DNA of 61,606 nucleotides, counting the filler, from Nitrospinota bacterium (GTDB lineage Bacteria; JAUXIQ01): NCBI GenBank assembly GCA_030620925.1. It is 14 parts of 14 records of this genome, joined end to end, with 100 filler letters (N's around TTAATTAATTAA, not from the genome) between each part and the next. Parts side by side here need not be neighbours in the genome. Positions count along the whole stretch, not along the records: positions 1 to 6,935 come from JAUXIQ010000101.1; 13 more parts are not named here. One strand, 5' to 3'. Position 1 is the stretch's first letter. Every line of letters starts with the position of its first letter. A program made the position numbers and the translations under genes. The notes under the pieces were generated by a model. That model was not told the DNA's origin and searched no databases. It saw only the letters and a list, made by a program, of their open reading frames with translations. Below are positions 1 to 57,925 of this stretch, in pieces.

Positions 1-412
1 GGGAGCAGGTAAGGAGACCTTGCCCAAGCTCCTTACCGGTCCCGTCCTCCGAACGGGACCACCCCGCAAAGCGAGACTCACTCCCCGGAGATGTGTTATT
101 TGAATTATCGGCTGAACTAATCGGATAGTTTATATCCTATTTGATTATCCAAGGCGGGAAACGGCTTCATGGGTGGGTTGTTGATGATCCCGCAGAACGA
201 GGGATTTGCAAGGGCAGGCGAGATTCTTCACTCCGTCTCGCGTTCCGCGGAACTACGTTCAGAATGACAGGAATGCGGAAGAGGGGTATCCCGCGTACAG
301 CGGGACCGTACCCCTGCCATGGTCGCGCCTGGAAGGCGATCCTGTGGCAGGTGTTTTGGGCGGCGACCCCGCGGGGCGCGAGAGCACAGCATTGATGCTG
401 TGAGCAGCAGTC

Positions 413-470
413 AAAAAAGTTTTTGGAAGAGGGTATGGGGGGAACCTTTATACAAAAAGGTTCCCCCATA
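413..470. repeat. Palindromic repeat (GGGGGAACCTTT-N-AAAGGTTCCCCC family), intergenic copy
   Basis: AAAAAAGTTTTTGGAAGAGGG leader, then hairpin TATGGGGGGAACCTTT-ATACAA-AAAGGTTCCCCCATA (434-470). A related copy lies inside dnaE2 at 3161-3254. Confidence 0.7.
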
Positions 471-517
471 GATTTTTCTTTTGTCCCTTTTTCTCGCTTT
501 TCCTTGTCTATCATTCC

Positions 518-546
518 TTGATTTTCGTATTTTCTTCGCTTATAAT
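518..546 (+). promoter_or_regulatory. Sigma70-type promoter upstream of dnaE2
   Basis: TTGATT-N17-TATAAT. Confidence 0.6.
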
Positions 547-594
547 GGCTAATGGTAGTTGTGTTTTGTCTGGAAACGTGCCGGCGGAGGAAAG

Positions 595-3500
595 ATGGGA
601 CAGGATTTCGTGCATCTGCACTGCCACAGCAACTATTCGCTGTTAGAAGGTGCAAACAAGATACAGGCGCTGCTGGACGCCGCCGCGGAAGCGGGTATGG
701 AAGCGTTAGCCGTCACTGATACCAATGCCCTCTACGGCGCTGTTGAATTCCACAAAGCCGCCCGTGAGCGGGGGATAAAACCCATCTTCGGCGCGGAGGT
801 GGACGACCCCGAAACGGGTCGTAAAGCGGTGCTCCTGGCCAGGGATCGGAAAGGATATTCCGCACTCTGCCGGGTCATCACCGCCCGCCGGCTCGACGAA
901 AACTTCTCCCTGGAAGATGCACTGGCGGATGAGAGAGCGGGCCTGTTCATCCTGAGCGCGGAGCCAGAGCTTCTGCGCACTCTCATGGATAAACGGGGCA
1001 AAGAGGGGCTCCGCGTGGAGCTGTCCGCTTGCTCCCCGGGCGGAATGAGGGAGCTGGCCCGTTTCGCAAATGAGAACGGCCTCCCGGCGGCGGTGACCAA
1101 CGATGTCCATTTCGCCCGCGGGGAAGGCTTCCGAATCCACAAGGTGCTGGCCGCCATCCGGGAGAACGCCACCATACACGGCGTCAATGCCGACAAACTG
1201 TGCAGCCCGGAATCCTGGCTCAAACCGCCTGACTTCATGGCGCGGATCGCCGGTGAATATCCCGAAGCCCTGGCGGAGACGGCGCGGATAGCCGAAGCGT
1301 GCAGCGTAGAGCTGGAGCTGGGCGTCAACAGGTTCCCCGCCTACCCGCTGCCGCCGGGGGAGACACCCTTCTCTTACCTGTGGAAAGTCTGTTTCCGGGG
1401 CCTGAGCGAGCGCTACCGGCCCATCACGCCGGAAGCAGTGCGCCGATTGGAGATGGAGCTTGATACCATCCGGAAGTTGGGCTACGCCGAGTATTTCCTG
1501 GTGGTATGGGATATCGTGGAGAAAGCCAAAGAGCTGGGCATCCCCACCGTGGGCCGCGGCTCGGCGGCTAACAGCATCGTCTCCTACGTCCTGGGCGCGA
1601 CGCACGTGGACCCCTTGGAACACGACCTTTATTTCGAGCGTTTCCTGAACCCGGAACGGGTGAGCCCCCCGGATATAGACCTGGATTTCTGCTGGCGGCG
1701 GCGGGACGAGATACTGGAATACGTCTACGAGCGTTACGGCGAGGACAGGGTGGCCATGATAGCCACCATCAACAGGTTCTCCGCCCGCTCGGCGGTGAGG
1801 GATGTCGCCAGGGCCATGGGGATGCCCCAATCCGAGGTGACCGCCTTCACCCGCCGGTTACCACACGTGGCGGTCTCCGCCATCGAGAAAGCAGTGGAGA
1901 CACTGCCAGAATCCCGCGACCTGCCCCTGCACAGGGAGCCTTATAAGACCATACTGGAGATCGCTGCCGCTATGGACCGCTACCCACGCCACCTGGGCGT
2001 GCACACCGGCGGCATGATCATTACCCCCGGCCCGCTCACCGATTACGTCCCCCTCCAGCGGGCGGCCAAAGGGCTGGTGGTTACCCAGTGCGATATGTAC
2101 GCCGCCGAGGACATGGGTCTCATCAAAATAGACCTGCTGGGCCAGCGCTCCCTCTCCGTCATCGCCGACACCCTGATCGACATAAAAGAAAAGGGGGTGG
2201 AGCCGGAGATGGCCCACCACCGCCTCATAAGCGACCCCGATACGCTGCGCCTCATGCGGAAGGGAAAGAGCATGGGCTGTTTCTACATCGAGTCGCCGGG
2301 TATGCGCAGCCTCATGATCAAGCTCAGGGTGGAGGATTTCCCCACGCTGGTAGCGGCAAGCTCTGTCATCCGGCCCGGCCCCGCCGACAGCGGCATGATG
2401 CGCCGTTTCATCGACCGCCACAACGGCCGTGAGGAGATCGTCTATCCGCATCCGACCATGCGTTTCCTGGAGGAGACGCACGGAGTGATGATCTACCAGG
2501 AGGACGTCATGCGCGTGGTACGGGAGGTGGCGGGCATGAGCCTGAGTGAGGCGGACTCCATACGGCGGGCCATGAGCTTCAAGGGTTCGCCGGAAAAAGT
2601 GCTGGCGCTGAAGAAGCGGTTCATGGAAGGGGCGGGCGGAAAGGGCGTGGAGGAAGAAACGGCCGAAGAGATATGGCGGCAGGTAAAGAGCTTCGCCGGC
2701 TACGCCTTCTGCAAGGCCCACAGCGCCTCTTACGCCCAGGTCTCTTTCGAGGCCGCATACCTGAAGGCGCATCACCCGGCGGAGTTCATGGCCGCGGTGC
2801 TATCCAACGGGGGCGGGTTCTACCCGGCGTTCGCTTACGTGGAGGAGGCGCGGCGCATGGGGCTCGCCATACTGCCGTCGGACGTGAACCGCAGCGAGCG
2901 CCGCTACATCGCCGAAGGGGAAGGCATACGCCTGGGTCTCATGTCGGTGCGAGACCTCACCCGGAAGGCCGTCGATTCCCTGCTGGAGGCTCGAAAGGAA
3001 GGCCGTTTCGTCTCGCCCACCGATTTCTGCCGCCGGGTGGACATCACCCTGAAGGAGGCGCAGAACCTGGTCCTCTGCGGCGCATTGGACTGCTTTGAAT
3101 TCACCCGCCCCGAGCTGATGTGGAAACTGGAGCTGTTCTGGTCCGATAATGGTCATGGCGAAAAAAGTTTGGGAAGGGGGGCCGGGGGAGAACCCTTTTT
3201 AAAGGGTTTCCCCCGGAAAGGGATCCGGGGAGAACTTTTTTTAATGAGTGCTCTCAAGGAGAAACCTTCCGCCATAGTGCCCCGTGTGCCCGACTATTCG
3301 TGGGAGAAGAAGCTGGCCCTGGAGCGGGAGATACTCGGTTTCGAGGTCTCCGTTCATCCCATGACTCTATACCGGGACGCCCTGAAGGATGAGGGACTCA
3401 TATCTGCCGGGGATATACCCAAACACGCGGGGAAGAGGGTGCGCGTGGCGGGGACCATGGTCACCAACCGGCGGGTGCGTCTCAAGGGGCGGGAGGAATA

Positions 3501-3711
3501 TATGAAGTTCGTCACCCTCCACGACGAGACGGATATCTTCGAGGCGACGCTTTTTCCCGCCGCCTACCAGAAATACGGCCACCTGCTGGTCACCCGCGGG
3601 CCTTACATCATCACCGGCCTGGTGGAGGAGGATTACGGCTACTGCACGATTACCGTGAACCCCGGAGAGCGGGGAGTGGAGCTTATAGGCCCCGATGCGC
3701 CCCCGCCCTGA
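595..3711 (+). CDS. dnaE2: DNA polymerase III alpha subunit, error-prone DnaE2 type
   Basis: PHP domain start (FVHLHCHSNYSLLEG), GRGSAANS, PPDIDLDF, KIDLLG, YAFCKAHSASY and a C-terminal OB fold. About 1038 aa with no C-terminal tau-binding extension. ATG at 595 follows GGAGG; the track starts at 559. Confidence 0.85.
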   Translation: MGQDFVHLHCHSNYSLLEGANKIQALLDAAAEAGMEALAVTDTNALYGAVEFHKAARERGIKPIFGAEVDDPETGRKAVLLARDRKGYSALCRVITARRLDENFSLEDALADERAGLFILSAEPELLRTLMDKRGKEGLRVELSACSPGGMRELARFANENGLPAAVTNDVHFARGEGFRIHKVLAAIRENATIHGVNADKLCSPESWLKPPDFMARIAGEYPEALAETARIAEACSVELELGVNRFPAYPLPPGETPFSYLWKVCFRGLSERYRPITPEAVRRLEMELDTIRKLGYAEYFLVVWDIVEKAKELGIPTVGRGSAANSIVSYVLGATHVDPLEHDLYFERFLNPERVSPPDIDLDFCWRRRDEILEYVYERYGEDRVAMIATINRFSARSAVRDVARAMGMPQSEVTAFTRRLPHVAVSAIEKAVETLPESRDLPLHREPYKTILEIAAAMDRYPRHLGVHTGGMIITPGPLTDYVPLQRAAKGLVVTQCDMYAAEDMGLIKIDLLGQRSLSVIADTLIDIKEKGVEPEMAHHRLISDPDTLRLMRKGKSMGCFYIESPGMRSLMIKLRVEDFPTLVAASSVIRPGPADSGMMRRFIDRHNGREEIVYPHPTMRFLEETHGVMIYQEDVMRVVREVAGMSLSEADSIRRAMSFKGSPEKVLALKKRFMEGAGGKGVEEETAEEIWRQVKSFAGYAFCKAHSASYAQVSFEAAYLKAHHPAEFMAAVLSNGGGFYPAFAYVEEARRMGLAILPSDVNRSERRYIAEGEGIRLGLMSVRDLTRKAVDSLLEARKEGRFVSPTDFCRRVDITLKEAQNLVLCGALDCFEFTRPELMWKLELFWSDNGHGEKSLGRGAGGEPFLKGFPRKGIRGELFLMSALKEKPSAIVPRVPDYSWEKKLALEREILGFEVSVHPMTLYRDALKDEGLISAGDIPKHAGKRVRVAGTMVTNRRVRLKGREEYMKFVTLHDETDIFEATLFPAAYQKYGHLLVTRGPYIITGLVEEDYGYCTITVNPGERGVELIGPDAPPP

Positions 3712-3730
3712 TGGGCGATAGGTGGTTTGG

Positions 3731-4133
3731 TGTAGGGGCGTATTGCATACGCCCCACTAGGGCGGGTTTCAAACCCGCCCCTACGCAGCATCCTGTCATT
3801 CTGAGTCCCGCGGTTAGCGGGACGAAGAATCTCGCCTGCCCTGGCAAACCCGCTTTCTTTTGCGCTTTCAAAATCCCCCTCCCCTTAATCCCCTCCCTCC
3901 AGTGGAGGGGAGATTTGTCGATTCGAAAGATTTCGGACCGATGAATCGTTAAATGAGTACGATAAGGGAGGTATTAGTTCTCCCTCCCCCTCGGCCCGCC
4001 TGCCGCGGGGCGTTCCGGTTGGGGAGGAATTAAGGTGGGGGTGAATACAATAAATTGATCGCGTTCCCGCGTGCCGGGGGATGCCGCTCCTACCGGATCT
4101 AGCGTAGGGGCGGGTTTGAAACCCGCCCTACAA
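3731..4133. repeat. Cluster of intergenic palindromic repeats (GTAG-type REPs, GTCATTCTGA..GAAGAATCTC element, CCCTCCCC..GGGGAGG element)
   Basis: GTAGGGGCGTATTGCATACGCCCC, GGGCGGGTTTCAAACCCGCCCCTAC and GTAGGGGCGGGTTTGAAACCCGCCCTAC; the same motifs recur in many other intergenic regions of the window. Confidence 0.8.
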
Positions 4134-4269
4134 TCGATATGCATCATTACCCACAACCCTTTAGGGCAAACCCAATGACCCCACAAACATAATTTAGCAG
4201 AAACGCCGGCAAACGTAGGGCCGAGCGCCCGCGCAGAACCCGTGTCGGGGCAACGGTTACTTTTTTTTG

Positions 4270-4341
4270 TTGACAGGATGGTTACGTTATATTATTTTGA
4301 ATATACAAATATATGTAATCCTTATAATTTGGTTTCCAAAT
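4270..4341 (+). promoter_or_regulatory. Promoter and candidate operator of the marR-permease operon
   Basis: TTGACA-N17-TATTTT (4270-4298); inverted repeat ATTTGG-TTT-CCAAAT (4327-4341) just before the RBS. Confidence 0.5.
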
Positions 4342-4360
4342 AAAAGGGGGCAGTTCATAA

Positions 4361-4819
4361 ATGGGTAAAGTCGAAGACCATGCGGATAGACTCCAGAAAA
4401 CGTTAAAGCATTTCATCCGTAGCCACCAGTTTCGAGACCGCAACGAGATGAGCCCCTTCGGAGTTACTGTTACCCAGTGTTACGCCCTTGACGCTCTGGG
4501 GGACAGCGGCAGCCTGACCATGAGCGAGCTGGCGGAGAAGATGTACCTCACCACTCCAACCATGACCGGCGTGGTGGAGGAACTGGTGAAGAAAGGGTTA
4601 ACGGAAAGAAAGTTCGACCAGCGGGACAGGCGGTTGATCCGTGTGGCCCTGACCCCCAAAGGGCTGGAAGTCTACGACCAGATCAGGGGTACGCTGCTGA
4701 ACAGATACAAGGATATTCTCAGGAGACTCAAACTTTCCGGTAGGGACGTGGACAAGGTCATCAGCGTGCTCAATGTGCTGACCGCTGATCCCGGGGAAAG
4801 TTGCGCCGAGTGTAAATAA
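4361..4819 (+). CDS. MarR-family transcriptional regulator
   Basis: Winged-HTH pattern LTMSELAEKMYLTTPTMTGVVEELVKKGL and DQRDRRLIRVALTPKG; C-terminal CAEC. Confidence 0.9.
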   Translation: MGKVEDHADRLQKTLKHFIRSHQFRDRNEMSPFGVTVTQCYALDALGDSGSLTMSELAEKMYLTTPTMTGVVEELVKKGLTERKFDQRDRRLIRVALTPKGLEVYDQIRGTLLNRYKDILRRLKLSGRDVDKVISVLNVLTADPGESCAECK

Positions 4820-4875
4820 CGCCGCACACAGGGAAGTGGACTTTTTACATACGCCTTTCAGAAGGAGATTAGAAA

Positions 4876-5817
4876 ATGTATGGTGAGTTGTGGATCATAG
4901 CCAAGACGGCCGGTCATATACTGGCCGAATTGTGGTGGTTCGTGGTGTTGGCCATAGTCATCGCCTCGATAATGTCCGCGCTCAAGCTTGATAAGAAGGT
5001 GTCCCTCTACTTTCATCGGGCCAAAGGGTGGGCTATTTTTGGAGCACTGCTTCTGGGTCTGGTCAGCCCCCTGTGAGCCATAGGGGTCCTCCCCGCGGTA
5101 GCGGCCATGCTGGCTGCGGGGGCGCCCATGGCACCCGTGATGGTGTTTCTGATTTCATCGCCGCTCATGAGCCCCAGCGCCTTTTTCATAACCCTGGGCG
5201 GTTTGGGATTAAGTATCGCCCTTTGGAAGCTGGTCTCCGCTGTTATCCTGGGCCTGGCTGCGGGTTGGATGACGGACCGGTTATCCAGACGCGGATATTT
5301 TGGTAATTCCATTCTTCGACTGGAAACCGCCCCGCCTGAGCAGAACCCGCCAACATCATGCTCCGCCTCAGGAAACGAAGTGCAGACCGAAAGCGCGGGA
5401 AGAGTAACCGGCGAGGATATAAAAGCAACGCTCCGCCTCACCTGGAAGTTCAGTGTTTTCATCGGCAAGTTCATCCTCATTGCGGTGGTAGCCCAGGCGG
5501 TGGTGATGCGTTTCGTCCCCCAGGATTGGGTGGTGACCGCCGTGGGCACCAAGAACGCATACGGAGTGCTCTACTCCACCATGATCGGCATTCCCACCTA
5601 TATAAGCAGCATCAGCGCCGTCCCGCTGCTCAGTGGGCTTATGGACCTGGGGATGGACAAGGGCGCTGTGCTTGCGTTCATCATAGCAGGCCCGGTTATG
5701 TCCGTGCCCTCCATACTGGCGGTGATGGCCCTGTTCAGGCGTCGGGCCCTCTACGTCTACATGATGGTGGGATTCATAGGAGCCATCCTTTTTGGATATA
5801 CCTACCGCCTCTTCTGA
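4876..5817 (+). CDS. DUF318/ArsP-type permease with in-frame TGA, predicted selenoprotein (U67, 313 aa)
   Basis: Track ORFs 4876-5076 and 5107-5817 are in the same frame and separated only by TGA 5074-5076. The joined sequence GLVSPL-U-AIGVLP...FLISSPLMSP matches the family motif PxCxCgxxP...FLxxxP. A hairpin follows the TGA. Confidence 0.8.
5076..5115 (+). promoter_or_regulatory. Candidate bacterial SECIS element of the permease
   Basis: Upper stem-loop CCGC-GGTA-GCGG (5093-5104), loop starting 20 nt after the UGA; possible lower stem AGCCA/TGGCT. Confidence 0.5.
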
Positions 5818-6106
5818 GTTAAGGGAAAATAACCGAGTCCTCCCGATAATAAGGCAGACCCCCCGTTTCAGGCGTTCCCTTTCCACAACAGGGCAAGAAG
5901 ACGGAGCTGAGAAAAATAAAACGGTATCCGCAATTGTCGAAACGACTTAACAGCGGCTTGTAAACCATATTTTTATTGCATCGTATACCCCATAAATGGT
6001 AAAAATAGTTGCTGTCAAAGGAGTTTGATTACACTATCATTTTGAAACTCCAGGCTGTGCTCGTCGTTTTGATTCAATCAAAATTTACGATGTGGGCTGT
6101 AACAAT

Positions 6107-6935
6107 ATGGACAAGCTATTAGACGCCCTTTTGTTGAGCAAAGATAAGGAAGCAGTCGAACTAATTACCCAGGCATTAAAAGCCAGCGACTACAAAATAT
6201 TGCGAAGGCGCCGGAAGAAAGAATTCGCGATGATTATCGTCGATCTGGATGATAATAACGCGGACCCCTTCAAGGAAATCAAAGACGCCAGAAAAAGGAA
6301 TGCCGATCTGGGAATTATCGCCATGGGGAAAACCGGTAGTCCGAAAAATGTGGTCAAGGCCATTAAAGCGGGAGCGGATGAGTACCTGTGGAAGCCGGTG
6401 ATTCCGGAGCAGGCAGCATTAGTCGCAGCAAGGTTCAGTGAGCGACACAAGCTCGAGATACAGGCCAGGGAAGCGGAGTTTTTTAGAAACCTGGCCAACA
6501 CCGATGAGCTCACCAGCCTATATAACTATAGATTTTTCCATCAACAACTGGATGCCGAAATATCCAGGTCCGTCCGACTTAAGAACAGCGTATGCCTCCT
6601 CATGCTGGATATCGATTTTTTCAAAGACTACAACGATTTCTTCGGCCACATGGCGGGGGACAAAGTCCTCAAGCAGATAGCCGGCATACTCGAACAGCAA
6701 AGCAGAAATTACGACACTGTGGCCAGATACGGAGGTGAGGAATTCACCGTTATAGCTCCTGAAGAAAGCAAGGCCGCCTCTAAGGCGCTGGGGTTAAGGC
6801 TTATGAATACAGTAAAGGAATTTGCCTTCAAAGGAGAGGAGAAGCTACCCGACGGAAAGCTTACCATAAGCGTGGGGATAGCATCTTTTCCTGAGGACGC
6901 CACTACAAAAATGGAACTGCTGGAGCGCGCCGACC
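6107..6935 (+). CDS. Diguanylate cyclase with N-terminal degenerate receiver domain (3'-truncated by contig end)
   Basis: TDELTSLYNYRFF, DIDFFKDYND, I-site RNYD and GGEEF; N-terminal AIKAGADEYLWKP receiver signature. Confidence 0.9.
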
Positions 6936-7035
6936 NNNNNNNNNNNNNNNNNNNNNNNNNNNNNNNNNNNNNNNNNNNNTTAATTAATTAANNNNNNNNN
7001 NNNNNNNNNNNNNNNNNNNNNNNNNNNNNNNNNNN
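6936..7035. other. Artificial contig linker (first of 13)
   Basis: 44 N + TTAATTAATTAA + 44 N. Also at 10503-10602, 14638-14737, 17570-17669, 21324-21423, 24738-24837, 30725-30824, 35067-35166, 38759-38858, 44015-44114, 47350-47449, 50792-50891 and 58382-58481. Genes are cut at these points. Confidence 0.98.
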
Positions 7036-10502: not shown

Positions 10503-10602
10503 NNNNNNNNNNNNNNNNNNNNNNNNNNNNNNNNNNNNNNNNNNNNTTAATTAATTAANNNNNNNNNNNNNNNNNNNNNNNNNNNNNNNNNNNNNNNNNN
10601 NN

Positions 10603-35166: not shown

Positions 35167-37025
35167 GTTTTGGTCATGAACAGGTCCTGAACCACCAGGA
35201 AGTCCAGCTTTCCCAGCGGTTCTTCAGCGCCGATATCCTCTACCGGGTCTACCCCCACCAGGTAGAGCCCCCCCACTTCCCCTGATCCCGCTCCGGCAAT
35301 TAGCTCCCGGCCGCTTTTGCCATTGCCGGATAAAGGAGCGGAGGGATAAAAATCTTTCAATTTCTCACTACCTTTTCCGTTCTCGTAGCCCGGAAGCCAT
35401 GCAGGGGCGACTCCCAGGTCTTCCATTCCCCTCAAGTTACCGCCGCTCCCCAACATGAGTATGGACGTATTCCTCCCGCTGCCCATGATGGTGGAGAGAA
35501 AATCGAGGGTGTCCAGCAGAGAGTCGTCAGCGGCATCGTAGTTGAACAGTATGGCCCTCGCTCCACCGCCTGCAAACAGTTTCGCCGCGCCCCTTACCTC
35601 CGCGGCGGTTACCCCTGTCTCCTCAGCCGCTTCATCCAGTGACAGGTTTTTTACGCCTAAAGCGATTTCTTTAAATCGCGCCGGAACCGGCGGTTCTTTC
35701 ACCAGAGCTTTTATTAAGCTCATGAGCAGAACCTTGCCCGTGCCCTCTTTGTAATTCAATTGTTGGGTGGCCAGGGCGTCGAGTTCAGTAGCGCCGCTGT
35801 TGGCGATGATGAGCCTGGCACCGCTCCTGCTGACCGCTTTCCTCACCCGCAGACTGAAGACGGGATGCTCTTCCGTCAGGTCTTCCCCCAAAATAATGAT
35901 GGTCCCTGCTCCGTCGATTGCAGAGAGCGAGCCCATGGCCCTGTCGCTGTTTCTTATGCGGGCCAGTTGCGCCCTGGATGACGGATGAAAGCCGTTGTCC
36001 ATGTTATCGGTGTGCATGACGCCCCGCATAAGCTTCTGGAACAAGTAGGCGTCTTCGTTCGAGCATCGCGGCGAACAGACGCCGCCCAGACCGGACGACC
36101 CTTTGTTGCGCATCACCTCCGACAGGCCGTCTGCCGCTCTCTTGATGGCTTCCTCCCAGGAGACGGGCACCAGCTCTCCGTTTTGGCGGATGTGGGGCCG
36201 GGTGATCCTCTCCTCGCTGTTTATGTAGTGGTAGCCATACCTTCCCTTGTCGCACATCCACCACTCGTTAACCTCCATGTTGACCCTGGGGGTGAGGCGA
36301 ATAACTTCGTTTTTCCTGTTCCAGGTGGTTATATTGCAGTCCACACTGCACAGGTTGCATACGCTCTCCGTCTTCTCCAGCTCCCAGACCCTGGCCTTGA
36401 ACCTGAAATCAGTGCTGGTCAGCGCCCCCACGGGGCAGATGTCCGCGAGGTTGCCCTGGAAGCTGTTGTTCAGGGGGCGGTTTTGGAAAAGGGTTATTTC
36501 CTTTTTGTCACTCCGCTGTTTTACCCAGAGCTCGTTGGTGCCGGTTATCTCCTCGGTGAAGCGGGTGCAGCGCAGGCACAGGACGCAGCGTTCGGGGTCG
36601 AAGATTATCTTATCGCTCAAGGGTCGGCGTTTATACCGAGTCATCTTCTGGAACTCGAAGCGGCTTTCTCCCTCACCGTGGGCCATCGTATAGTCCTGCA
36701 GGGGGCACTCTCCGCCTTTGTCGCAGATGGGGCAGTCCAGGGGGTGGTTGAGGAGCAGGAACTCCAGAACGGCCTTCCGCTCCTTGATCACCGCGGGAGA
36801 CTCCGTATAGATTTCCATACCCTCCTTGACAGGTATATTGCAGCCTATCTGAAGTTTGGGGACGCCTTTTATCTCCACGTAGCACATGCGGCACGTCCCG
36901 CTCAGGGAGAGGCCGGGGTGGTAGCAGAAATGGGGGATCGCCACACTTACTTTTTTTGCCGCTTCGATAGCGTTGACGCCTTCCTCTACGGCGACCTCCA
37001 CGTCGTTTATTTTGATGGTGATCAT
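35167..37025 (-). CDS. nuoG: NADH-quinone oxidoreductase subunit G (3'-truncated)
   Basis: IPHFCYHPGL, CRMCYVE, NHPLDCPICDKGGECPLQD, RCVLCLRCTRF, ICPVGAL, CNLCSVDC...CDKGR. Confidence 0.88.
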
Positions 37026-40375: not shown

Positions 40376-40567
40376 TTAAGCTACTCTAGTAACCTTCCCC
40401 GAACGCAGGCATCTGCTGCATACCTTGACCCTGCGGGGTTTGCCGTCGATGATAACCCTCATTTTTTGAACGTTGGGATTCCATACCTTGCGGTTGACGT
40501 TATGGGCGTGGCTTATCTGTCGACCCACCTGAGGTCCTTTTCCGCATATATCGCACCTGTTAGCCAA
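40376..40567 (-). CDS. rpmB: 50S ribosomal protein L28
   Basis: [22 protein letters not shown]...PNVQ...[12 protein letters not shown] start at 40567 after GGAG (alternative ATG at 40573). Confidence 0.95.
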
Positions 40568-40693
40568 TTCCATCCACTCCCGTAAGTAAGATATTGCCAA
40601 ATGTGTTAAACTTTCCATATAATAGCACCCACGGTTCTCTATTTCAAACAAAATGTATTCTGGATTCACTTCCAGGAAGTCGGGAGGTGTCCC

Positions 40694-40954
40694 ATGGCGG
40701 AAAAGAGCATAGGGCGGGTGGTCAAGTATTTCTCCAAGGCGGGAGCCGCTGCCATTGAACTGGAGAGAGAAAACCTCAAAATCGGTGATACCGTGGTCTT
40801 CAGAGGGCATACCACCGATTTCACCCAGACCATCGATTCCATGCAGGTAGACAACCAGCCCATAGAGGAAGCGAAGCCCGGCGATTCTGTAGGCATCAAA
40901 GTCAGCGAGCGAGTCCGCCCGCACGATGAGGTGTTAAAGGTAATCCCCGATTAA
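40694..40954 (+). CDS. Small translation-factor-like beta-barrel protein (U32 peptidase C-terminal-like)
   Basis: [42 protein letters not shown]. Confidence 0.8.
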
Positions 40955-50932: not shown

Positions 50933-51994
50933 ATGAGCGGAAAAGATTCTTACGGCGTTCTAATGAAGAATTTAGGTTTCCCAGAGTCGGGCACGCTCAG
51001 GGCGCTGCTCGAATATCTCATCTCGCCGCGGCAAGCGGGCCTGGCGGCGGCCATGCCCGGGCACCCGGATGATCTGGCGGAAAAGCTGGGTATGGACAAG
51101 GCGGCGGCTATGAGCGACATCCATGACATGTACCGCAGAGGGATAATATTCCCCAAAAACAGGTATACCATGGAGAAGTGCCGCTTCGCCAAGACGGCCG
51201 GTGAATTTCACGACGCCATAGGTTCACGCCTCACCAACGACCCTGAGGCGGAACCCATGCTCTATAAGCTGATCTGGGATTTCCGGCGTTCCGACATGGA
51301 CAAGGATATGGCCGAAAGGTCCGCTAAGTATGAGGCCCCTATAATTCGCGTGGTGCCCCCCTACATACTGGTCAAGGACCATCCCGAGCTGCTCCCCAGC
51401 GAAAACCTGAAAGAGCTCATATCGGCCCAGAGCTTGATCGCCGAGGCTGGATGCACCTGTAGGAAGACTAAACGGGCCCTGAAAGACCCCTGCACATGCA
51501 CCTCCGACGGAGACTGCATCGTCTTCGGCCGCGCCGCGGAAAACTGCATCACGCGGGGTACGGCGAAGGAGATAACCCAGGAAGAGGCCATGGATTTCTT
51601 CATCAAGATGGAAGAGAACGGAGTCATCCACAACTGGCTGAACTATGCGGGCACGGAGCTTTACATAATGTGCAACTGCTGTCCCTGCTGCTGCATCGCC
51701 ATTCATCCGCTGCGGGAGCATGGTGTGGACTATCACAAATGGTGGACGCCCAGCCGATGGGAGGCAAAGGTAGACGCTGAACTGTGCGCCAGTTGTGAGC
51801 AGTGTGTAGACTACTGCGGCTTCGAAGCCATAGAGATGCAGGAGGTTGAAGGGGAAGATAAGGCCGTTGTGCTGCCGGAAAAATGTATGGGATGCGGCGC
51901 CTGCGTCATACGCTGCCCCAATGATTCCATAAATTTCGACCTGGTGCGGCCGCCGGAGCATATCCCGGAAAAGCTTGTCGCTACCTTCCATTAA
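50933..51994 (+). CDS. 4Fe-4S dicluster-binding protein with N-terminal HTH-like region
   Basis: CTCR, CNCCPCCC and two CxxCxxCxxxC ferredoxin motifs at the C-terminus. Confidence 0.85.
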   Translation: MSGKDSYGVLMKNLGFPESGTLRALLEYLISPRQAGLAAAMPGHPDDLAEKLGMDKAAAMSDIHDMYRRGIIFPKNRYTMEKCRFAKTAGEFHDAIGSRLTNDPEAEPMLYKLIWDFRRSDMDKDMAERSAKYEAPIIRVVPPYILVKDHPELLPSENLKELISAQSLIAEAGCTCRKTKRALKDPCTCTSDGDCIVFGRAAENCITRGTAKEITQEEAMDFFIKMEENGVIHNWLNYAGTELYIMCNCCPCCCIAIHPLREHGVDYHKWWTPSRWEAKVDAELCASCEQCVDYCGFEAIEMQEVEGEDKAVVLPEKCMGCGACVIRCPNDSINFDLVRPPEHIPEKLVATFH

Positions 51995-52043
51995 AGACGG
52001 GCACCGCCCCTGGACCGACAATCGGAGGAGAAAGGACAGACGT

Positions 52044-53204
52044 ATGCCCATTCAGATTTTCGATGAACAACATAACCTGTTCAGGAACTCGCTGCGCCGT
52101 TTCTGCGAAAATGAGATCGCGCCCTATGCCGAGGAGTGGCGCAAGCAGGGGGAGGTTCCCAGGGAGATATGGCGCAAGCTCGGTGATCAGGGCTTCATCG
52201 GCTACTGGGTAGACGAGGAATACGGCGGCGCCGGACTCGATTTTTCCTATTCAGTTATCATGGCCGAGGAGCTCACACGGGCCGGTTCGACGGGCTTCAA
52301 TGCAGGGTTCAGCGTCCACAACGATATCGTTATGCCCTATATTGGTATGTTGGGCAGCCACGAGCAGAAGCTGAAATGGCTCCCCAAGTGCTGCACGGGA
52401 GAATATGTAATCGCCATCGGCATGACCGAACCCGGTTCAGGCTCCGACCTGGCGGCGTTGAAGACCACCGCCGTTCGCGACGGCGACGACTACGTGCTTA
52501 ACGGTCAGAAGACCTTCATCACCAACGGCTACAACTGCGACCTCATCGTGGTGGCCTGCAAGACAGACCCCAAGGCCGACCCGCCTTACAAGGGCGTCTC
52601 TCTAATCGTTGTTGAGAACGGCACACCGGGCTTCATCAAGAACCGCAAGCTGGATAAGATAGGCCTGCACGATTCGGATACCGCGGAGCTGTTTTTCGAT
52701 GACTGCCGCGTGCCGGCGGAAAACCTGCTGGGAAGGGAAGGGGACGGGTTCATCCCCATGATGAAGAACCTCCAGCAGGAGCGCCTCATCTCCGCCGTGG
52801 GTTCCATAGTGGGAGCGGAGGGCATGCTGGAAATCACGATCGAATACACCAAGACACGCACCGCCTTCGGCCGTCCTATATGCTCCTTCCAGCACAACAC
52901 TTTCAAGATAGTGGAGATGGCCACCGAGATAGAGATGGCCAAGACTTTCACCTACGCGCTGGTGGAGGAGCACCTGGCAGGCGTGGATATCACCCGGAAG
53001 GTCTCGATGTGCAAATGGTATAACGCCGAGCTGGCCAATCGCGTGGCCTACCACTGCGTCCAGCTCCACGGCGGCTACGGCTACATGGAGGAATACCAGA
53101 TCGCCCGCGCCTACCAGGACGCCCGCGCTGGGACCATCGCCGCCGGTTCTACTGAGATCATGAAACGGATTATAGGCAGTATGATGGGATTGGGAGAAGA
53201 TTAA
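52044..53204 (+). CDS. Acyl-CoA dehydrogenase (LCAD-like), copy 1
   Basis: MTEPGSGSDL, NGQKTFITNG, QQERL, QLHGGYGYM; 386 aa. Confidence 0.95.
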   Translation: MPIQIFDEQHNLFRNSLRRFCENEIAPYAEEWRKQGEVPREIWRKLGDQGFIGYWVDEEYGGAGLDFSYSVIMAEELTRAGSTGFNAGFSVHNDIVMPYIGMLGSHEQKLKWLPKCCTGEYVIAIGMTEPGSGSDLAALKTTAVRDGDDYVLNGQKTFITNGYNCDLIVVACKTDPKADPPYKGVSLIVVENGTPGFIKNRKLDKIGLHDSDTAELFFDDCRVPAENLLGREGDGFIPMMKNLQQERLISAVGSIVGAEGMLEITIEYTKTRTAFGRPICSFQHNTFKIVEMATEIEMAKTFTYALVEEHLAGVDITRKVSMCKWYNAELANRVAYHCVQLHGGYGYMEEYQIARAYQDARAGTIAAGSTEIMKRIIGSMMGLGED

Positions 53205-53221
53205 CAGAAGGGAATCGCCGA

Positions 53222-54382
53222 ATGCCAACCAATATCTTCGATGAACAACACGAGCTGTTCAGGAACACGGTACGCCGCTTCTGCGAGAATGAAATAGCGC
53301 CCCACGTCGAGGAATGGCGCAACAATGGAGAAGTTCCGCGGGAAATATGGCGCAGAATGGGCGAGCAGGGGTTTATCGGTTTCTGGGCGGATGAAGAGTA
53401 TGGTGGTGCGGGGTTGGATTTCGCCTATTCCGTAATCATGATAGAAGAGCTTTGCCGGGTCAGCGCTTCCGGCCTGAACAGCAAATACACCGTGCATAAC
53501 GATATAGCCCTGCCCTACATCAACATGCTGGGCACGGCTGAACAGAAATCGAAATGGATGCCGAAATGCTGCAACGGAGAGCATATCGTAGCCATCGGTA
53601 TGACCGAGCCGGGAGCAGGCTCAGACCTTGCGGCCATAAAGACCACCGCTGTTCGCGACGGCGACGATTACGTCATCAACGGCCAGAAGACGTTCATCAC
53701 CAACGGTCACACCTGCGACCTGCTGGTGCTGGCATGCAAGACCGACACCAAAGCCGTCCCCGCTTACAAAGGCGTCTCCCTCATCGTGATTGAGGACGGC
53801 ACGCCCGGTTTCGTTAAGAACCGCAAGCTGCAAAAGATAGGCCTGCACGATTCGGATACCGCCGAACTCTTCTTCGAGGACTGCCGTGTGCCCGTTTCCA
53901 ACCTGCTGGGAGAAGAAGGGGACGGATTTAAGCCCATGATGAGGAACTTGCAGCAGGAACGCCTCGTGGCCTGCGTGGGCGGCATAGTTACCGCGGAACA
54001 CCTCCTTGATATCACCGTCGAATACACCAAGACGCGCACCGCCTTCGGCCGCCCCATCTGCTCCTTCCAGCATAACACCTTCAAGATAGTCGAAATGGCT
54101 ACTGAAATAGAGATGGCCAAGACTTTCACCTACTCCCTGATTGAAGACTACCTCTCGGGGATGGATATCACCACAAAAGTGTCCATGGCCAAGTGGTACA
54201 ACTCAGAGCTGCTCAACAGGATCGCTTACCACTGCGTACAGCTCCACGGCGGCTACGGGTATATGGAGGAGTATGAGATCGGCCGTGCTTACCAGGATGT
54301 CCGCATGAGGACCATCGCCGCTGGTTCCACCGAAATAATGAAGCGCATCATAGGAAAGAGGATGGGCCTGGGAGAAGATTGA
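53222..54382 (+). CDS. Acyl-CoA dehydrogenase (LCAD-like), copy 2
   Basis: Same motifs; 386 aa. Confidence 0.95.
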   Translation: MPTNIFDEQHELFRNTVRRFCENEIAPHVEEWRNNGEVPREIWRRMGEQGFIGFWADEEYGGAGLDFAYSVIMIEELCRVSASGLNSKYTVHNDIALPYINMLGTAEQKSKWMPKCCNGEHIVAIGMTEPGAGSDLAAIKTTAVRDGDDYVINGQKTFITNGHTCDLLVLACKTDTKAVPAYKGVSLIVIEDGTPGFVKNRKLQKIGLHDSDTAELFFEDCRVPVSNLLGEEGDGFKPMMRNLQQERLVACVGGIVTAEHLLDITVEYTKTRTAFGRPICSFQHNTFKIVEMATEIEMAKTFTYSLIEDYLSGMDITTKVSMAKWYNSELLNRIAYHCVQLHGGYGYMEEYEIGRAYQDVRMRTIAAGSTEIMKRIIGKRMGLGED

Positions 54383-54474
54383 TAGAGAGCAGCGCCGGAC
54401 GGGGTGGGGGAGATCCTGAGTCGAGGGATTAAACCCGCACCTGCTACATCAACTAAGACGAAAGGATCGACGAT

Positions 54475-55635
54475 ATGCCCATCAACATATTCAACGAGCA
54501 GCACGACCTGTTCCGAAACTCAGTCAGACGGTTCTGCGAAAACGAAGTGGCCCCCTACGCCCTCGAATGGCGCGAAAAGGAGAACATTCCCCGTGATGTC
54601 TGGCGCAAAATGGGCGACCAGGGGTTTATCGGGTTCTGGCTGGACGAAGAGCATGGCGGCGCAGGGCTGGATTTCTCTTATTCGGTGATAATGGTGGAGG
54701 AGCTTTGCCGGTCGGGCTCCTGGGGGCTGAACACCGGCTACAGTGTGCATAACGACATTGCCATGCCCTACATAGACATGCTGGGCACTCCCGAGCAGAA
54801 GGCGCGGTGGCTGCCTAAATGCTGCACCGGCGAATATTTAACCTGCATCGGAATGAGCGAGCCGGGCGCAGGCTCCGACCTGGCGGCCATAAAGACCAGC
54901 GCCGTGCGAGACGGCGACGACTACGTGATAAACGGGCAGAAAACTTTTATCACCAACGGTCACAATTGCGACCTCATCGTGCTGGCCTGCAAGACCGACC
55001 CCAAGGCCGATCCTCCTTACAAGGGAGTTTCCCTCATTGTCGTCGAAGACGGCACACCGGGTTTCATCAAGAACCGCAAGCTGGAGAAGGTGGGTCTGCA
55101 CGATTCGGATACCGCCGAACTCTTCTTCGATGATTGCCGCGTTCCGGCGGCGAATCTGCTGGGTAAGGAAGGGGACGGGTTTAAACCCATGATGACGAAC
55201 CTGCAGCAGGAGCGCCTGATAGTCGTGGTGGCCTACATAGCGCTATTGGACAGGATGCTGGAGATCACCGTGGACTATACAAAGACGCGCACCGCTTTCG
55301 GCCGCCCCATCTGCTCCTTCCAGCACAATACCTTCAAAATAGTGGAGATGGCCACCGAGATCGAGATGGGCAGGACGTTCACCTATTCCCTGCTGGAAGA
55401 TTATCTCTCCGGCGAAGACATCACCAGGAAGGTCTCCATGGCCAAATGGTATTTATCCGAGCTGACCAACCGGGTGGCTTACGACTGCGTCCAGCTCCAC
55501 GGCGGTTACGGATACATGGAAGAATATGAGATTGCCCGTCTGTTCCTCGACGCCCGCGTCAACACTTTAGGCGGTGGAAGCACGGAGATCATGAAACGCA
55601 TCGTAGGGAAGATGATGGGCCTTGGCGAGGATTGA
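54475..55635 (+). CDS. Acyl-CoA dehydrogenase (LCAD-like), copy 3
   Basis: Same motifs; 386 aa. Confidence 0.95.
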   Translation: MPINIFNEQHDLFRNSVRRFCENEVAPYALEWREKENIPRDVWRKMGDQGFIGFWLDEEHGGAGLDFSYSVIMVEELCRSGSWGLNTGYSVHNDIAMPYIDMLGTPEQKARWLPKCCTGEYLTCIGMSEPGAGSDLAAIKTSAVRDGDDYVINGQKTFITNGHNCDLIVLACKTDPKADPPYKGVSLIVVEDGTPGFIKNRKLEKVGLHDSDTAELFFDDCRVPAANLLGKEGDGFKPMMTNLQQERLIVVVAYIALLDRMLEITVDYTKTRTAFGRPICSFQHNTFKIVEMATEIEMGRTFTYSLLEDYLSGEDITRKVSMAKWYLSELTNRVAYDCVQLHGGYGYMEEYEIARLFLDARVNTLGGGSTEIMKRIVGKMMGLGED

Positions 55636-55732
55636 TATAGAGCAGAACAAAATCGGGGTGAGGGCGGTCCCGCGCCACAGGATTAAACCCGCCCCTATTA
55701 ACTGTTTGACGTAGTACACAAAGGGGAGATAG

Positions 55733-56890
55733 ATGATAGATTTCAGCTTCACGCCTGAACAGGAGCTTTTTCGTAGAACAATCAGGGAGTTCGTCCAGCG
55801 TGAGATTCGACCCATGTCTCCAGAGTGGGATAAGAACCACGAGTATCCCAGGGAGGTGTTTAAGAAGATGGGGGAACTGGGTCTCCCCGGGGTGCACGTT
55901 CCTACCCAATACGGCGGCTCGGGGATGGACAGGGTCACCAGCGGCATAGCGGCGGAAGAGGTGGCGCGGGGCGATTTGAGCTGCGGTTACTCGGTCATGC
56001 TGGGGGGGCTCCTGGGGGACCTCATAGACGAATACGCTGTGGACAGGTTGAAGCAGGAATGGCTGCCCAGGATAGCCGGCGGTGAATCGGTGGTGGCCCT
56101 TGGGCTCACGGAGCCCTCGGCAGGCTCGGATGCAGCGTCCATCAAGCTGAAAGCCGTGCGGGACGGCGATGAATACGTCCTCGACGGCGAAAAGACCTCC
56201 ATCTCCATGTGTTCCGTCGCAGACGCCATCGTCCTTTTCGCCCGCACCGGCGCCGAGGAGGAGAAACATCGGGGTGTGAGTACCTTCCTGGTCCCGTTAG
56301 ACCTCCCGGGCATCACCACCACCCAGTTCAACGACATGGGCCATCACGCCGTAGGGCGGGGGTCGGTCTTCTTCGATAGCGTGCGCATACCCGCGGACCA
56401 TCTGATGAGTTCCGAAGGGACGGGGTTCATCCAGGTGATGATCGGTTTCGATTACACCAGGGCCATCATCGGTCTCATGTGCCTGGGTTCGGCTGCCGCT
56501 TCGGTGGAGGATACCATCAACTACGTGAAGGAGCGCGAGGCTTTCGGGAGGCCCATAGCCCGCTTCGAGGGGGTCTCCTTTCCCATTGCGGAGGCGCTGA
56601 CCAGGATAGACGCCGCCCGCTGGCAGTGCTACCGTACCCTGTGGCTCAAAGATAATGAGCTGCCGCATACCGCCGAGGCGGCCATGTGCAAATGGTGGGC
56701 GCCCAGGATTTCGGTGGAGATCATCCACGAGATGCTGCTCCTGCACGGCCACTACGGCTACACCGACGAATTTCCACTGGAGCAGCGGCTGCGCGACGTG
56801 ATAGGTCTGGAAATAGGGGACGGCACGGCGCAGATACAGAAGATAGTCATCGCCCGCGAGCTCATAGGCAAGGAATACAAACCTTACTGA
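55733..56890 (+). CDS. Acyl-CoA dehydrogenase, cyclohexanecarboxyl-CoA dehydrogenase-like
   Basis: LTEPSAGSDA, GEKTSIS, HGHYGY, RDVIGLEIGDGTAQIQK (Asp at the usual Glu position, as I recall for AliB-type enzymes). Confidence 0.8.
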   Translation: MIDFSFTPEQELFRRTIREFVQREIRPMSPEWDKNHEYPREVFKKMGELGLPGVHVPTQYGGSGMDRVTSGIAAEEVARGDLSCGYSVMLGGLLGDLIDEYAVDRLKQEWLPRIAGGESVVALGLTEPSAGSDAASIKLKAVRDGDEYVLDGEKTSISMCSVADAIVLFARTGAEEEKHRGVSTFLVPLDLPGITTTQFNDMGHHAVGRGSVFFDSVRIPADHLMSSEGTGFIQVMIGFDYTRAIIGLMCLGSAAASVEDTINYVKEREAFGRPIARFEGVSFPIAEALTRIDAARWQCYRTLWLKDNELPHTAEAAMCKWWAPRISVEIIHEMLLLHGHYGYTDEFPLEQRLRDVIGLEIGDGTAQIQKIVIARELIGKEYKPY

Positions 56891-56992
56891 ACCGAATAAA
56901 TATTAGTGTCGGGGAGACGGATTTTTCGGAACCCGGGGGAGGGATAATCTCCGCATAATTAACCACGAATGGTGCAAAGGGGGGGAACAACT

Positions 56993-57925
56993 ATGATAAT
57001 CGACGTTCATTACCATATACGCACGGATGATAAGGGCCTCGATGCTGAATCCATCGAATGGCGTGTCAACTGGTTGGCCGGCCTGTCAACAAAAATGGGA
57101 GTCAAGGTTTCTGCGGATCAAATCCGCAAGCAGGTTGTGGAAACGCTGGTGGACCCCGACGGTGAGCATATGCTGCAGTGGATGGATGAAACCGGCGTGG
57201 ACGTCGTGGTGGCCTTCCCGGTGGACAACATCGAAGGCCCCTACGCAGCAGAGGATGCCATCATAAAATGGACCAAGGCCGTTGCCGATATCGCCAACCG
57301 CAATCCGGATAAGGTGGTGGCTTTTGCCGGGGTGGACCCCAGGCGCAAGAACGCCCCCCAGCTCCTCAAGCGATACGTAGAAGAGTTCGGGATGAAGGGC
57401 GTCAAGTACCATCCCGACCTCGGTTTCTACCCCGACGGCGAGGAATCTTACGCTGTCATGGAAGTGGCCGCGGAATACGGCCTGACGCTCCTATCCCATA
57501 CCGGCCAGCTCAATCCCCCCTATCGGAACAAGTATGCCCACCCTATCTACCTGGACGACCTGGCCGTCGATTTTCCCGAAGTTAAGATCATCGCCGCTCA
57601 CATGAACAATAAGAGCTGGCAGGATTGGGCGGTTCTGGCATCTATGAAAGACCATCTCTACGGCGACCTTGCCATGTGGCAGTTTCACGCAGAGGCGGAT
57701 TACGATCGATTCTGCCGCGCCCTCCGGGAAATGATAGACACCGCCGGACCGGACAAAATCTTGTTCGCCACCGATGCCCCTGGATTCGAGCCGATAATCC
57801 CTTCTAAACGCTGGATAGAAATCATGCGCAGTCTGCCTGAGAACGCTTCTCCTGGCACCAGTTTCACGACCCAGGAGGTGGACGCCATGCTGGGAGGCAA
57901 CGCACGCCGAGCCCTGGGCCTGTGA
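56993..57925 (+). CDS. Amidohydrolase_2 family protein
   Basis: IIDVHYH, GVKYHP, SHTG, IIAAHM, ILFATDAP. Confidence 0.9.
   Translation: MIIDVHYHIRTDDKGLDAESIEWRVNWLAGLSTKMGVKVSADQIRKQVVETLVDPDGEHMLQWMDETGVDVVVAFPVDNIEGPYAAEDAIIKWTKAVADIANRNPDKVVAFAGVDPRRKNAPQLLKRYVEEFGMKGVKYHPDLGFYPDGEESYAVMEVAAEYGLTLLSHTGQLNPPYRNKYAHPIYLDDLAVDFPEVKIIAAHMNNKSWQDWAVLASMKDHLYGDLAMWQFHAEADYDRFCRALREMIDTAGPDKILFATDAPGFEPIIPSKRWIEIMRSLPENASPGTSFTTQEVDAMLGGNARRALGL

Follow-up and report, generated by a model that had tools for sequence, protein, structure and literature searches.

A PF03773-family permease gene with an in-frame TGA at its conserved cysteine position: a candidate single-selenol transporter from a Nitrospinota bacterium

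The coding region of a membrane permease in a Nitrospinota bacterium (assembly GCA_030620925.1) contains a TGA triplet where most members of its family have a cysteine codon, which raises the question of whether this gene is broken, whether it encodes two separate proteins, or whether the triplet is read as selenocysteine (Sec). The gene lies at positions 4876-5817 on the plus strand of a 61.6-kb window, i.e. the whole stretch of DNA that was analysed, and the triplet in question at 5074-5076. About 14 short pieces, joined end to end, make up the window, and the permease belongs to the piece covering positions 1-6935. On the sequence evidence presented below, the permease is likely a selenoprotein. 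The complete reading, in which a permease carrying Sec67 would export a thiophilic metal or metalloid under the control of a MarR-type regulator, is considered probable.

The reading frame on the plus strand extends from 4876 to 5817, and the TGA at 5074-5076 is its only interruption. The first open reading frame (ORF; 4876-5076) encodes 66 amino acids and is terminated by this triplet. Beyond it the same frame is free of stops until a second TGA at 5815-5817, and the read-through product comprises 313 residues, with the sequence ...GLVSPL-U-AIGVLPAVAAML... around codon 67. A GGAG ribosome-binding site (4864-4867, plus strand, direct reading) is located 8 nt ahead of the ATG at 4876, and full-length homologues align with the query as far as residue 312-313, which marks the second TGA as the true stop of the permease. 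The read-through protein matches the Pfam family PF03773 (ArsP_1/DUF318/UPF0718 YraQ, 'predicted permease') at 147.4 bits (gathering cut-off 32.3; E-value 6.4e-43), and the match covers residues 11-310 and profile positions 8-292 of 294. Since this match crosses the TGA, the two ORFs are parts of one gene, which would encode a multi-pass permease selenoprotein. Genome-wide recoding of TGA (translation table 4 or 25) was considered and ruled out, as table 11 leaves the long genes unbroken and TGA is the commonest ordinary stop, closing 18 of the 36 ORFs in the window. Because TGA is an ordinary stop here, and also the permease's own terminator, a local signal is needed for the triplet at 5074-5076 to be decoded.

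The place of the TGA within the protein was determined by alignment of 192 homologues with MAFFT, of which 174 cover position 67. The family motif at this place is SP[LF]-C-[SA]-C-G, and position 67 is a Cys in 160 of the 174 site-covering homologues. The C-x-C arrangement is present in 139 of them (CSC in 118, CAC in 21), and another 21 carry the first Cys without the second, for example as CGI or CGV in ...ICGIGVLPI. Residues other than Cys occur at position 67 in 14 homologues (GSY in six, GTY and STF in two each, and PTF, ATY, GLR and YSC in one each). The motif of the window is SPL-U-A-I-GVLPA, in which U67 occupies the first and most conserved Cys position, I69 the second, and the flanking SPL and G are retained. 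The second motif Cys is also absent from the other two sequences of the window's clade (see below) that are readable there, both pieces of relatives with Val or Met, and thus from all three. If the UGA is decoded, Sec67 would stand for the first Cys of SP[LF]-C-x-C-G, the most conserved motif of the family, and since the second motif Cys is replaced by Ile, the protein would hold a single selenol per protomer. The first-pass annotation, made from the sequence alone, had proposed a DUF318/ArsP-type permease in a single frame broken only by this TGA, in which U stands at the motif's first Cys and Ile replaces the second. All these proposals are borne out by the ORF coordinates, the PF03773 match across the TGA and the homologue alignment. 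It had also pointed out that Trp, Arg or Gly at this site in close homologues would indicate a simple nonsense mutation, and the residue found in 160 of the 174 homologues is Cys.

A TGA at a Cys position could nevertheless result from decay, as a nonsense mutation of TGC or TGT, or a sequencing error, in an ordinary Cys-type permease. TGA is one base away from the Cys codons, near-identical relatives are deposited as fragments (P0002, 236 amino acids; P0122, 66 amino acids), and Sec machinery was not seen in the window. A pseudogene is, however, difficult to reconcile with the distribution of the stop among relatives. A search of short proteins with residues 1-66 returned 40 matches, 39 of which span all 66 residues at 64-95% identity, and all 40 terminate exactly at ...GLVSPL (35) or ...GLVSPF (5). 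In a second search, directed at proteins of near-equal length, every match at least 45% identical was a piece of 182-249 amino acids without the N-terminal quarter of the query. Full-length forms (about 300-365 amino acids) were all at most 42% identical to the window protein and carried CSC or CAC. The close relatives that these searches returned are stored solely as N-terminal pieces of 34-79 amino acids and as the larger C-terminal pieces, and in nine cases an N-terminal and a C-terminal piece have an identical longest-contig size (9113, 16137, 2073, 1545, 1187, 2425, 1521, 1166 and 1194). Two further searches gave no close relative: a scan of genome contigs with the window protein found one Cys-type locus of 30% identity, from Halomonas (L001), and a tblastn search of plasmids matched 939 records, the best at 33% and none at 60% identity or more.

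The relationship of the cut forms to each other was examined in a FastTree tree built from query columns 90-313 of 265 sequences (matches of at least 200 amino acids and the window protein). Of 88 pieces that start just past the site, 83 form one clade of 84 together with the window protein (local support 0.91), and neither the 160 Cys forms nor the 14 non-Cys forms have a member in it. The 40 sequences of the sister clade are Cys forms throughout (CSC in 34, CAC in six). The cut forms of the clade reach down to about 37-45% identity with the window protein. The stop is therefore not unique to this assembly, a possibility that had been raised earlier, as it recurs at the same site in every N-terminal fragment and in the 83-piece clade. 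The other five cut forms are dispersed among Cys forms and may be partial sequences or products of separate events. Three more distant PF03773 pieces (P0257, P0282 and P0219) start at or just past motif position 71 (VIPV..., VVPI... and VASLL...), and the tree groups them with CSC forms; they may have been cut by contig ends, or may represent other Sec events of the type U-S-C-G-V.

The sequence directly behind the stop is also conserved. Among the 83 clade pieces, 36 begin 2-10 codons past the stop, upstream of residue 78, and match window residues 69-77 in frame (e.g. VGVLPVVAALLASG), which means that the frame is maintained directly past the stop. The expected mark of a decoded UGA is just such a stop, which stays at one codon over wide divergence while both flanks remain conserved and in frame. 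A pseudogene does not match this pattern, since a dead gene would not keep such conserved flanks, and the pattern also speaks against a genuinely split gene. In addition, the TGA is directly followed by the strongest hairpin of the window. Considering these results, loss of function by mutation or sequencing error is highly improbable.

A conserved cut position across the clade would also be expected of a naturally split transporter with a genuine stop, in which a 66-residue N-terminal membrane peptide and a 236-residue C-terminal protein assemble. An ATG at 5107 (M78) indeed opens a frame of 236 amino acids downstream of the internal TGA, and the stop of the relatives, seen as protein ends, could be any stop codon. 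Yet the stop and M78 are separated by ten codons for AIGVLPAVAA, a conserved segment of the family motif, and it is this segment into which the 36 pieces described above reach with in-frame homologous sequence. M78 is equally conserved in the unsplit Cys forms (AAML) and is therefore no dedicated start, and direct reading of 5090-5106 revealed no GGAG-type ribosome-binding site. Furthermore, the break is found exactly at the residue where Sec is the chemical equivalent of the ancestral Cys. For these reasons, a two-part transporter is regarded as quite unlikely, and decoding of the UGA as Sec remains the preferred explanation.

The local signal for such decoding may be provided by the RNA that follows the TGA. 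The first-pass annotation had described here a hairpin of CCGC, GGTA and GCGG with a possible lower stem of AGCCA and TGGCT. All these elements are present (CCGC 5093-5096, GGTA 5097-5100, GCGG 5101-5104, AGCCA 5076-5080 and TGGCT 5111-5115), but this is not the favoured fold: the CCGC-GGTA-GCGG hairpin alone yields -5.8 kcal/mol, and the 40-nt stretch in which it had been drawn adopts another fold. The favoured fold of the 60 nt from the TGA is a long hairpin at 5077-5132 (plus strand, starting 1 nt past the TGA) of -36.7 kcal/mol, with the apical loop GCCA at 5104-5107 and a bulged G at 5112, and the proposed CCGC-GGTA-GCGG stem sits in its 5' arm. This longer hairpin is the candidate for a selenocysteine insertion sequence (SECIS). 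It is exceptional in the window, ranking first of the 1831 TGA-starting 60-nt stretches of both strands (mean -13.6, standard deviation 5.1) and lowest among 22 GC-matched TGA-starting stretches (mean -22.7, standard deviation 5.7), and its z-score is -2.3 relative to 200 dinucleotide shuffles. The loop opens with a G, at a distance of 30 nt from the first base of the UGA. A stem-loop adjoining the UGA, with an apical loop that begins with G about 30 nt downstream, presumably fits the loose description of a bacterial SECIS element. The hairpin at 5077-5132 would be the structure that directs decoding of UGA 5074-5076 as Sec. A permissive Rfam search of 4980-5220 returned one match at chance level (gntR-DTE, E-value 1.2).

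The surroundings of residue 67 in the protein were examined in an AlphaFold2 model obtained from a 101-row alignment, with a mean predicted local distance difference test score of 86 and a predicted template modelling score of 0.83. In this model, residues 64-70 (SPLUAIG) form a non-helical break that joins helices 51-63 and 71-80, and a pseudo-symmetric break at 239-244 is preceded by helix 230-238 and followed by helix 245-257. Model confidence is low in the central loop (about 139-178), which contains C162, the sole Cys of the protein. The 40 N-terminal pieces have no Cys anywhere in their 66 aligned residues, and downstream Cys residues of the clade are found mainly in the central loop. 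With the clade's membrane helices essentially free of Cys, the membrane part would have no chalcogen side chain other than Sec. The Protein Data Bank contained no relative by sequence (sole match at E-value 0.45) and no match by fold at an E-value of 0.001 or below; the weak top matches by fold, the transporters TRAP SiaQM (TMq 0.45), CNT and ASBT, are leads only.

By analogy with the SO_0444 family and ArsP, which are compared with the permease below, the protein may export a thiophilic metal, metalloid or organometal(loid), with Sec67 acting as the ligand of the substrate. Such a role in metal(loid) efflux is plausible, with about an even chance of being correct. The permease could instead be a selenoprotein for a chalcogen substrate (selenide, a persulfide, a thiosulfate-like compound or a thiol), with a Se-S or Se-Se bond formed transiently during uptake or export, as has been proposed for YedE/YeeE-type carriers. 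One Sec with no other Cys in the membrane helices would make a poor metal chelate and would be enough for covalent exchange, and Sec forms of the YeeE/YedE transporter family are listed in the accessible portion of a 2026 review (PMC13188914). The neighbouring MarR protein, with its one invariant Cys, is likewise of a class whose members often sense oxidants or thiol-reactive compounds, according to the available text of bioRxiv 10.1101/2021.08.12.456183. However, the characterised PF03773 relatives are metal(loid) exporters, as far as the accessible parts of the sources describe them (bioRxiv 10.1101/072470; PMC6205960), no sulfur or selenium metabolism gene is present beside the permease on the piece 1-6935, and a hypothetical homodimer could unite two selenols. 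A chalcogen substrate is therefore rather unlikely, and export of a thiophilic metal(loid) is the role retained here.

The second gene that may be important for the function of the permease is located immediately upstream. It encodes a MarR-family transcriptional regulator of 152 amino acids (4361-4819, plus strand; PF12802, E-value 1.6e-14; PF01047, E-value 5.7e-13) and lies 56 nt upstream of the permease gene on the same strand; in a simple scan, the interval between both genes showed no terminator-like site. A sigma-70-like promoter candidate, TTGACA-17 nt-TATTTT, is present at 4270-4298 of the plus strand (10 of 12 hexamer matches, by consensus only), in a region where four promoter-like sites were found and 2.2 were expected. 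Between this candidate and the MarR start, at 4320-4348, there is an imperfect inverted repeat, CCTTATAATTTGG / CCAAATAAAAGGG, with 13-nt arms that are 77% complementary and 3 nt apart, and, judged by its sequence and position, it is a possible candidate for the MarR operator. The permease would be co-transcribed with this upstream repressor and would probably be under its control. Cys40 of the regulator (in QCY) is retained in the window protein and in all ten relatives compared, while a C-terminal Cys (C147 and C150 of a C-A-E-C sequence in the window) is variable, being present in seven of the ten relatives and missing in three. These residues suggest that the regulator is possibly a thiol-based sensor, and the invariant Cys40 may sense the same substrate that the permease transports. 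Six of the ten MarR relatives (65-94% identical) match permease pieces in source and in exact longest-contig size (1070, 9113, 3279, 2425, 1752 and 1512), and because these contigs are so short, adjacency of the two genes would follow; the MarR gene is probably linked to the permease in these six. The link between both genes that the first-pass annotation had assumed is therefore supported by the gene order in the window and probably by that of relatives.

Besides these two genes, the piece 1-6935 carries DnaE, a repeat-rich spacer and a GGDEF response regulator. The spacer, situated between dnaE and the MarR gene, contains GC-rich palindromic units (GGGCGGGTTTCAAACCCGCCC and a variant) at 3732-3796 and 4092-4130, two inverted copies 295 nt apart, which resemble intergenic repeats of the repetitive extragenic palindromic type. 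Because of these units, two spurious ORFs at 3711-3944 (plus strand) and 3974-4186 (minus strand) share the peptide RAGFKPAPT. Since the window is a composite of joined pieces, neighbours past position 6935 are uninformative for the permease. The joints are marked by thirteen paired runs of 44 N with 12 bases between, the first at 6936-7035 and the others at 10503, 14638, 17570, 21324, 24738, 30725, 35067, 38759, 44015, 47350, 50792 and 58382; the 12 spacer bases at 6980-6991 translate as L-I-N-stop. On another piece, 35167-37025 of the minus strand encodes the N-terminal 619 amino acids of a molybdopterin oxidoreductase similar to NuoG and formate dehydrogenase, in which 2Fe-2S, 4Fe-4S and molybdopterin domains were recognised and which breaks off where the piece ends. 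The part present contains no in-frame TGA and thus offers no second selenoprotein candidate. The region 50933-56890 encodes a 4Fe-4S ferredoxin-domain protein and, after it, four acyl-CoA dehydrogenase paralogues in tandem (409, 386, 386 and 385 amino acids), and next comes an amidohydrolase (56969-57925). In a 182-residue ORF at 40376-40924 (minus strand), a ribosomal L28 domain is confined to residues 123-177, and the start of this ORF is probably placed too far upstream.

Several observations weigh against a Sec-containing metal(loid) exporter and have to be set beside the evidence in its favour. The stop site of the relatives was read from protein ends, where the kind of codon, TGA or other, is not visible. 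The sequence of the hairpin is very GC-rich, and its fold is just 2.3 standard deviations more stable than those of its shuffled versions; Rfam gave no SECIS match, tRNA-Val being the only hit at gathering thresholds in the window. No selA, selB, selC, selD or other selenoprotein gene is present in the window, which says little of the genome because the window is put together from short pieces. The scores of the read-through protein are below the cut-offs of the models for its described relatives, namely 112.1 against 300 bits for NF033936 (SO_0444), 94.4 against 325 bits for NF040736 (SaoE) and 18.1 against 100 bits for NF037962 ('arsenic efflux protein'). A partner Cys in the central loop was dropped as a universal feature, being present in 64 of the 84 clade members. 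The piece 1-6935 holds no metal or ars gene, the linkage of the MarR gene in relatives is suggested by equal contig sizes with the contigs themselves unseen, and the function is assigned by analogy only.

The closest parallel to the proposed selenoprotein among known systems is the SO_0444 family (NF033936), whose members are named Cu/Zn efflux transporters. In the available text of their preprint, Haft and Gwadz report that the CSC motif of this family is 'occasionally' USC, with WP_014809615.1 of Desulfomonile tiedjei, along with the nearest homologues of this protein, as the example, and that PGAP, the annotation pipeline of NCBI, includes this family in its reference data (bioRxiv 10.1101/2022.07.06.499078). 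The accessible part of the 2026 review gives the Sec form as UxC under NF033936 (PMC13188914). Sec at this motif position of the superfamily has thus already been reported, as USC in SO_0444, at least in the portions of these sources at hand. Like the SO_0444 selenoproteins, as described there, the window permease belongs to the PF03773 superfamily and would carry Sec for the first Cys of the C-S-C motif, and SO_0444 selenoprotein genes typically appear UGA-truncated in databases, where the close relatives of the window gene are stored as pieces too. Unlike the U-S-C of SO_0444, however, the window motif is U-A-I, without the second Cys. Moreover, none of 78 relatives, chosen to cover the Sec clade, the sister clade and more distant CSC forms, reaches the NF033936 cut-off of 300 (best 159.3 bits). 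As the window protein and all 78 relatives stay below it, the clade lies outside this equivalog model. The window therefore appears to represent a distinct, apparently unannotated Sec clade of the PF03773 superfamily with a single-selenol site, whose origin is likely independent of the USC protein of D. tiedjei. In the literature searched, no pairing of selenocysteine with PF03773 was found, nor of 'selenoprotein' with UPF0718, YraQ or DUF318, and beyond the preprint of Haft and Gwadz 'selenoprotein' occurred together with 'arsp'-type words only on unrelated topics.

ArsP of Campylobacter jejuni is a member of the same Pfam family, ArsP_1 (PF03773). Its transport reportedly depends on the motif cysteines. 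In the accessible part of the source, ArsP is an efflux permease for methylarsenite and trivalent roxarsone (PMC6205960). The window gene differs from it in having no ars operon around it, in Sec taking the place of Cys and in the presence of one ligand instead of two. A DUF318/arsP-related gene of Shewanella loihica is highlighted in a zinc-stress fitness plot, according to the available portion of bioRxiv 10.1101/072470. SaoE (NF040736), from the selenocysteine-assisted organometallic (SAO) locus, is a further homologue among the PF03773 permeases; it carries a CSC motif, has a proposed role in metal efflux and, in the text available, is reported as never Sec-containing, unlike the window protein (bioRxiv 10.1101/2022.07.06.499078). 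In further contrast to SaoE, no SaoP, SaoA, SaoB or SaoL is encoded on the piece 1-6935. On the side of the regulator, AdMarR_ars of Achromobacter is an arsenic-responsive MarR_ars with Cys36, Cys37 and Cys157 (bioRxiv 10.1101/2021.08.12.456183, accessible part). It is a MarR-family repressor beside a metalloid resistance transporter, an arrangement that the window pair may share, and the window regulator likewise has a Cys near residue 40 and a C-terminal Cys. Unlike AdMarR_ars, the window regulator has the single Cys40 and no vicinal pair, and three of its ten relatives are without the C-terminal Cys, which makes the likeness loose and one of description.

Sec is rare outside redox enzymes, and few families of Sec transporters are named in the accessible portions of the sources: MerT-like proteins, SO_0444, SaoP/SaoB, YedE and a P-type ATPase (bioRxiv 10.1101/2022.07.06.499078; PMC13188914). 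Current annotation misses the clade as a whole, because none of the relatives found at 45% identity or more is stored full-length, and a curated model would mend many gene calls in it. A further, tentative proposal, which may well prove wrong, combines these features: the clade would be a second, independently arisen and unannotated Sec clade that operates with one selenol and no other membrane Cys, either as a dimer clamp or through a transient covalent Se-substrate bond, on an organometal(loid) or chalcogen compound and together with a thiol-sensing MarR. If true, the C-x-C position would be a recurrent site of Cys-to-Sec exchange, and the permease a minimal, one-ligand model of selenium-based transport. 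A one-selenol site without the second Cys would also allow a clean test of the share of Sec in substrate binding, by comparison of U, C and S forms. Alongside the USC proteins of SO_0444, the permease described here suggests that Sec also occurs at this motif position in clades outside the SO_0444 model.

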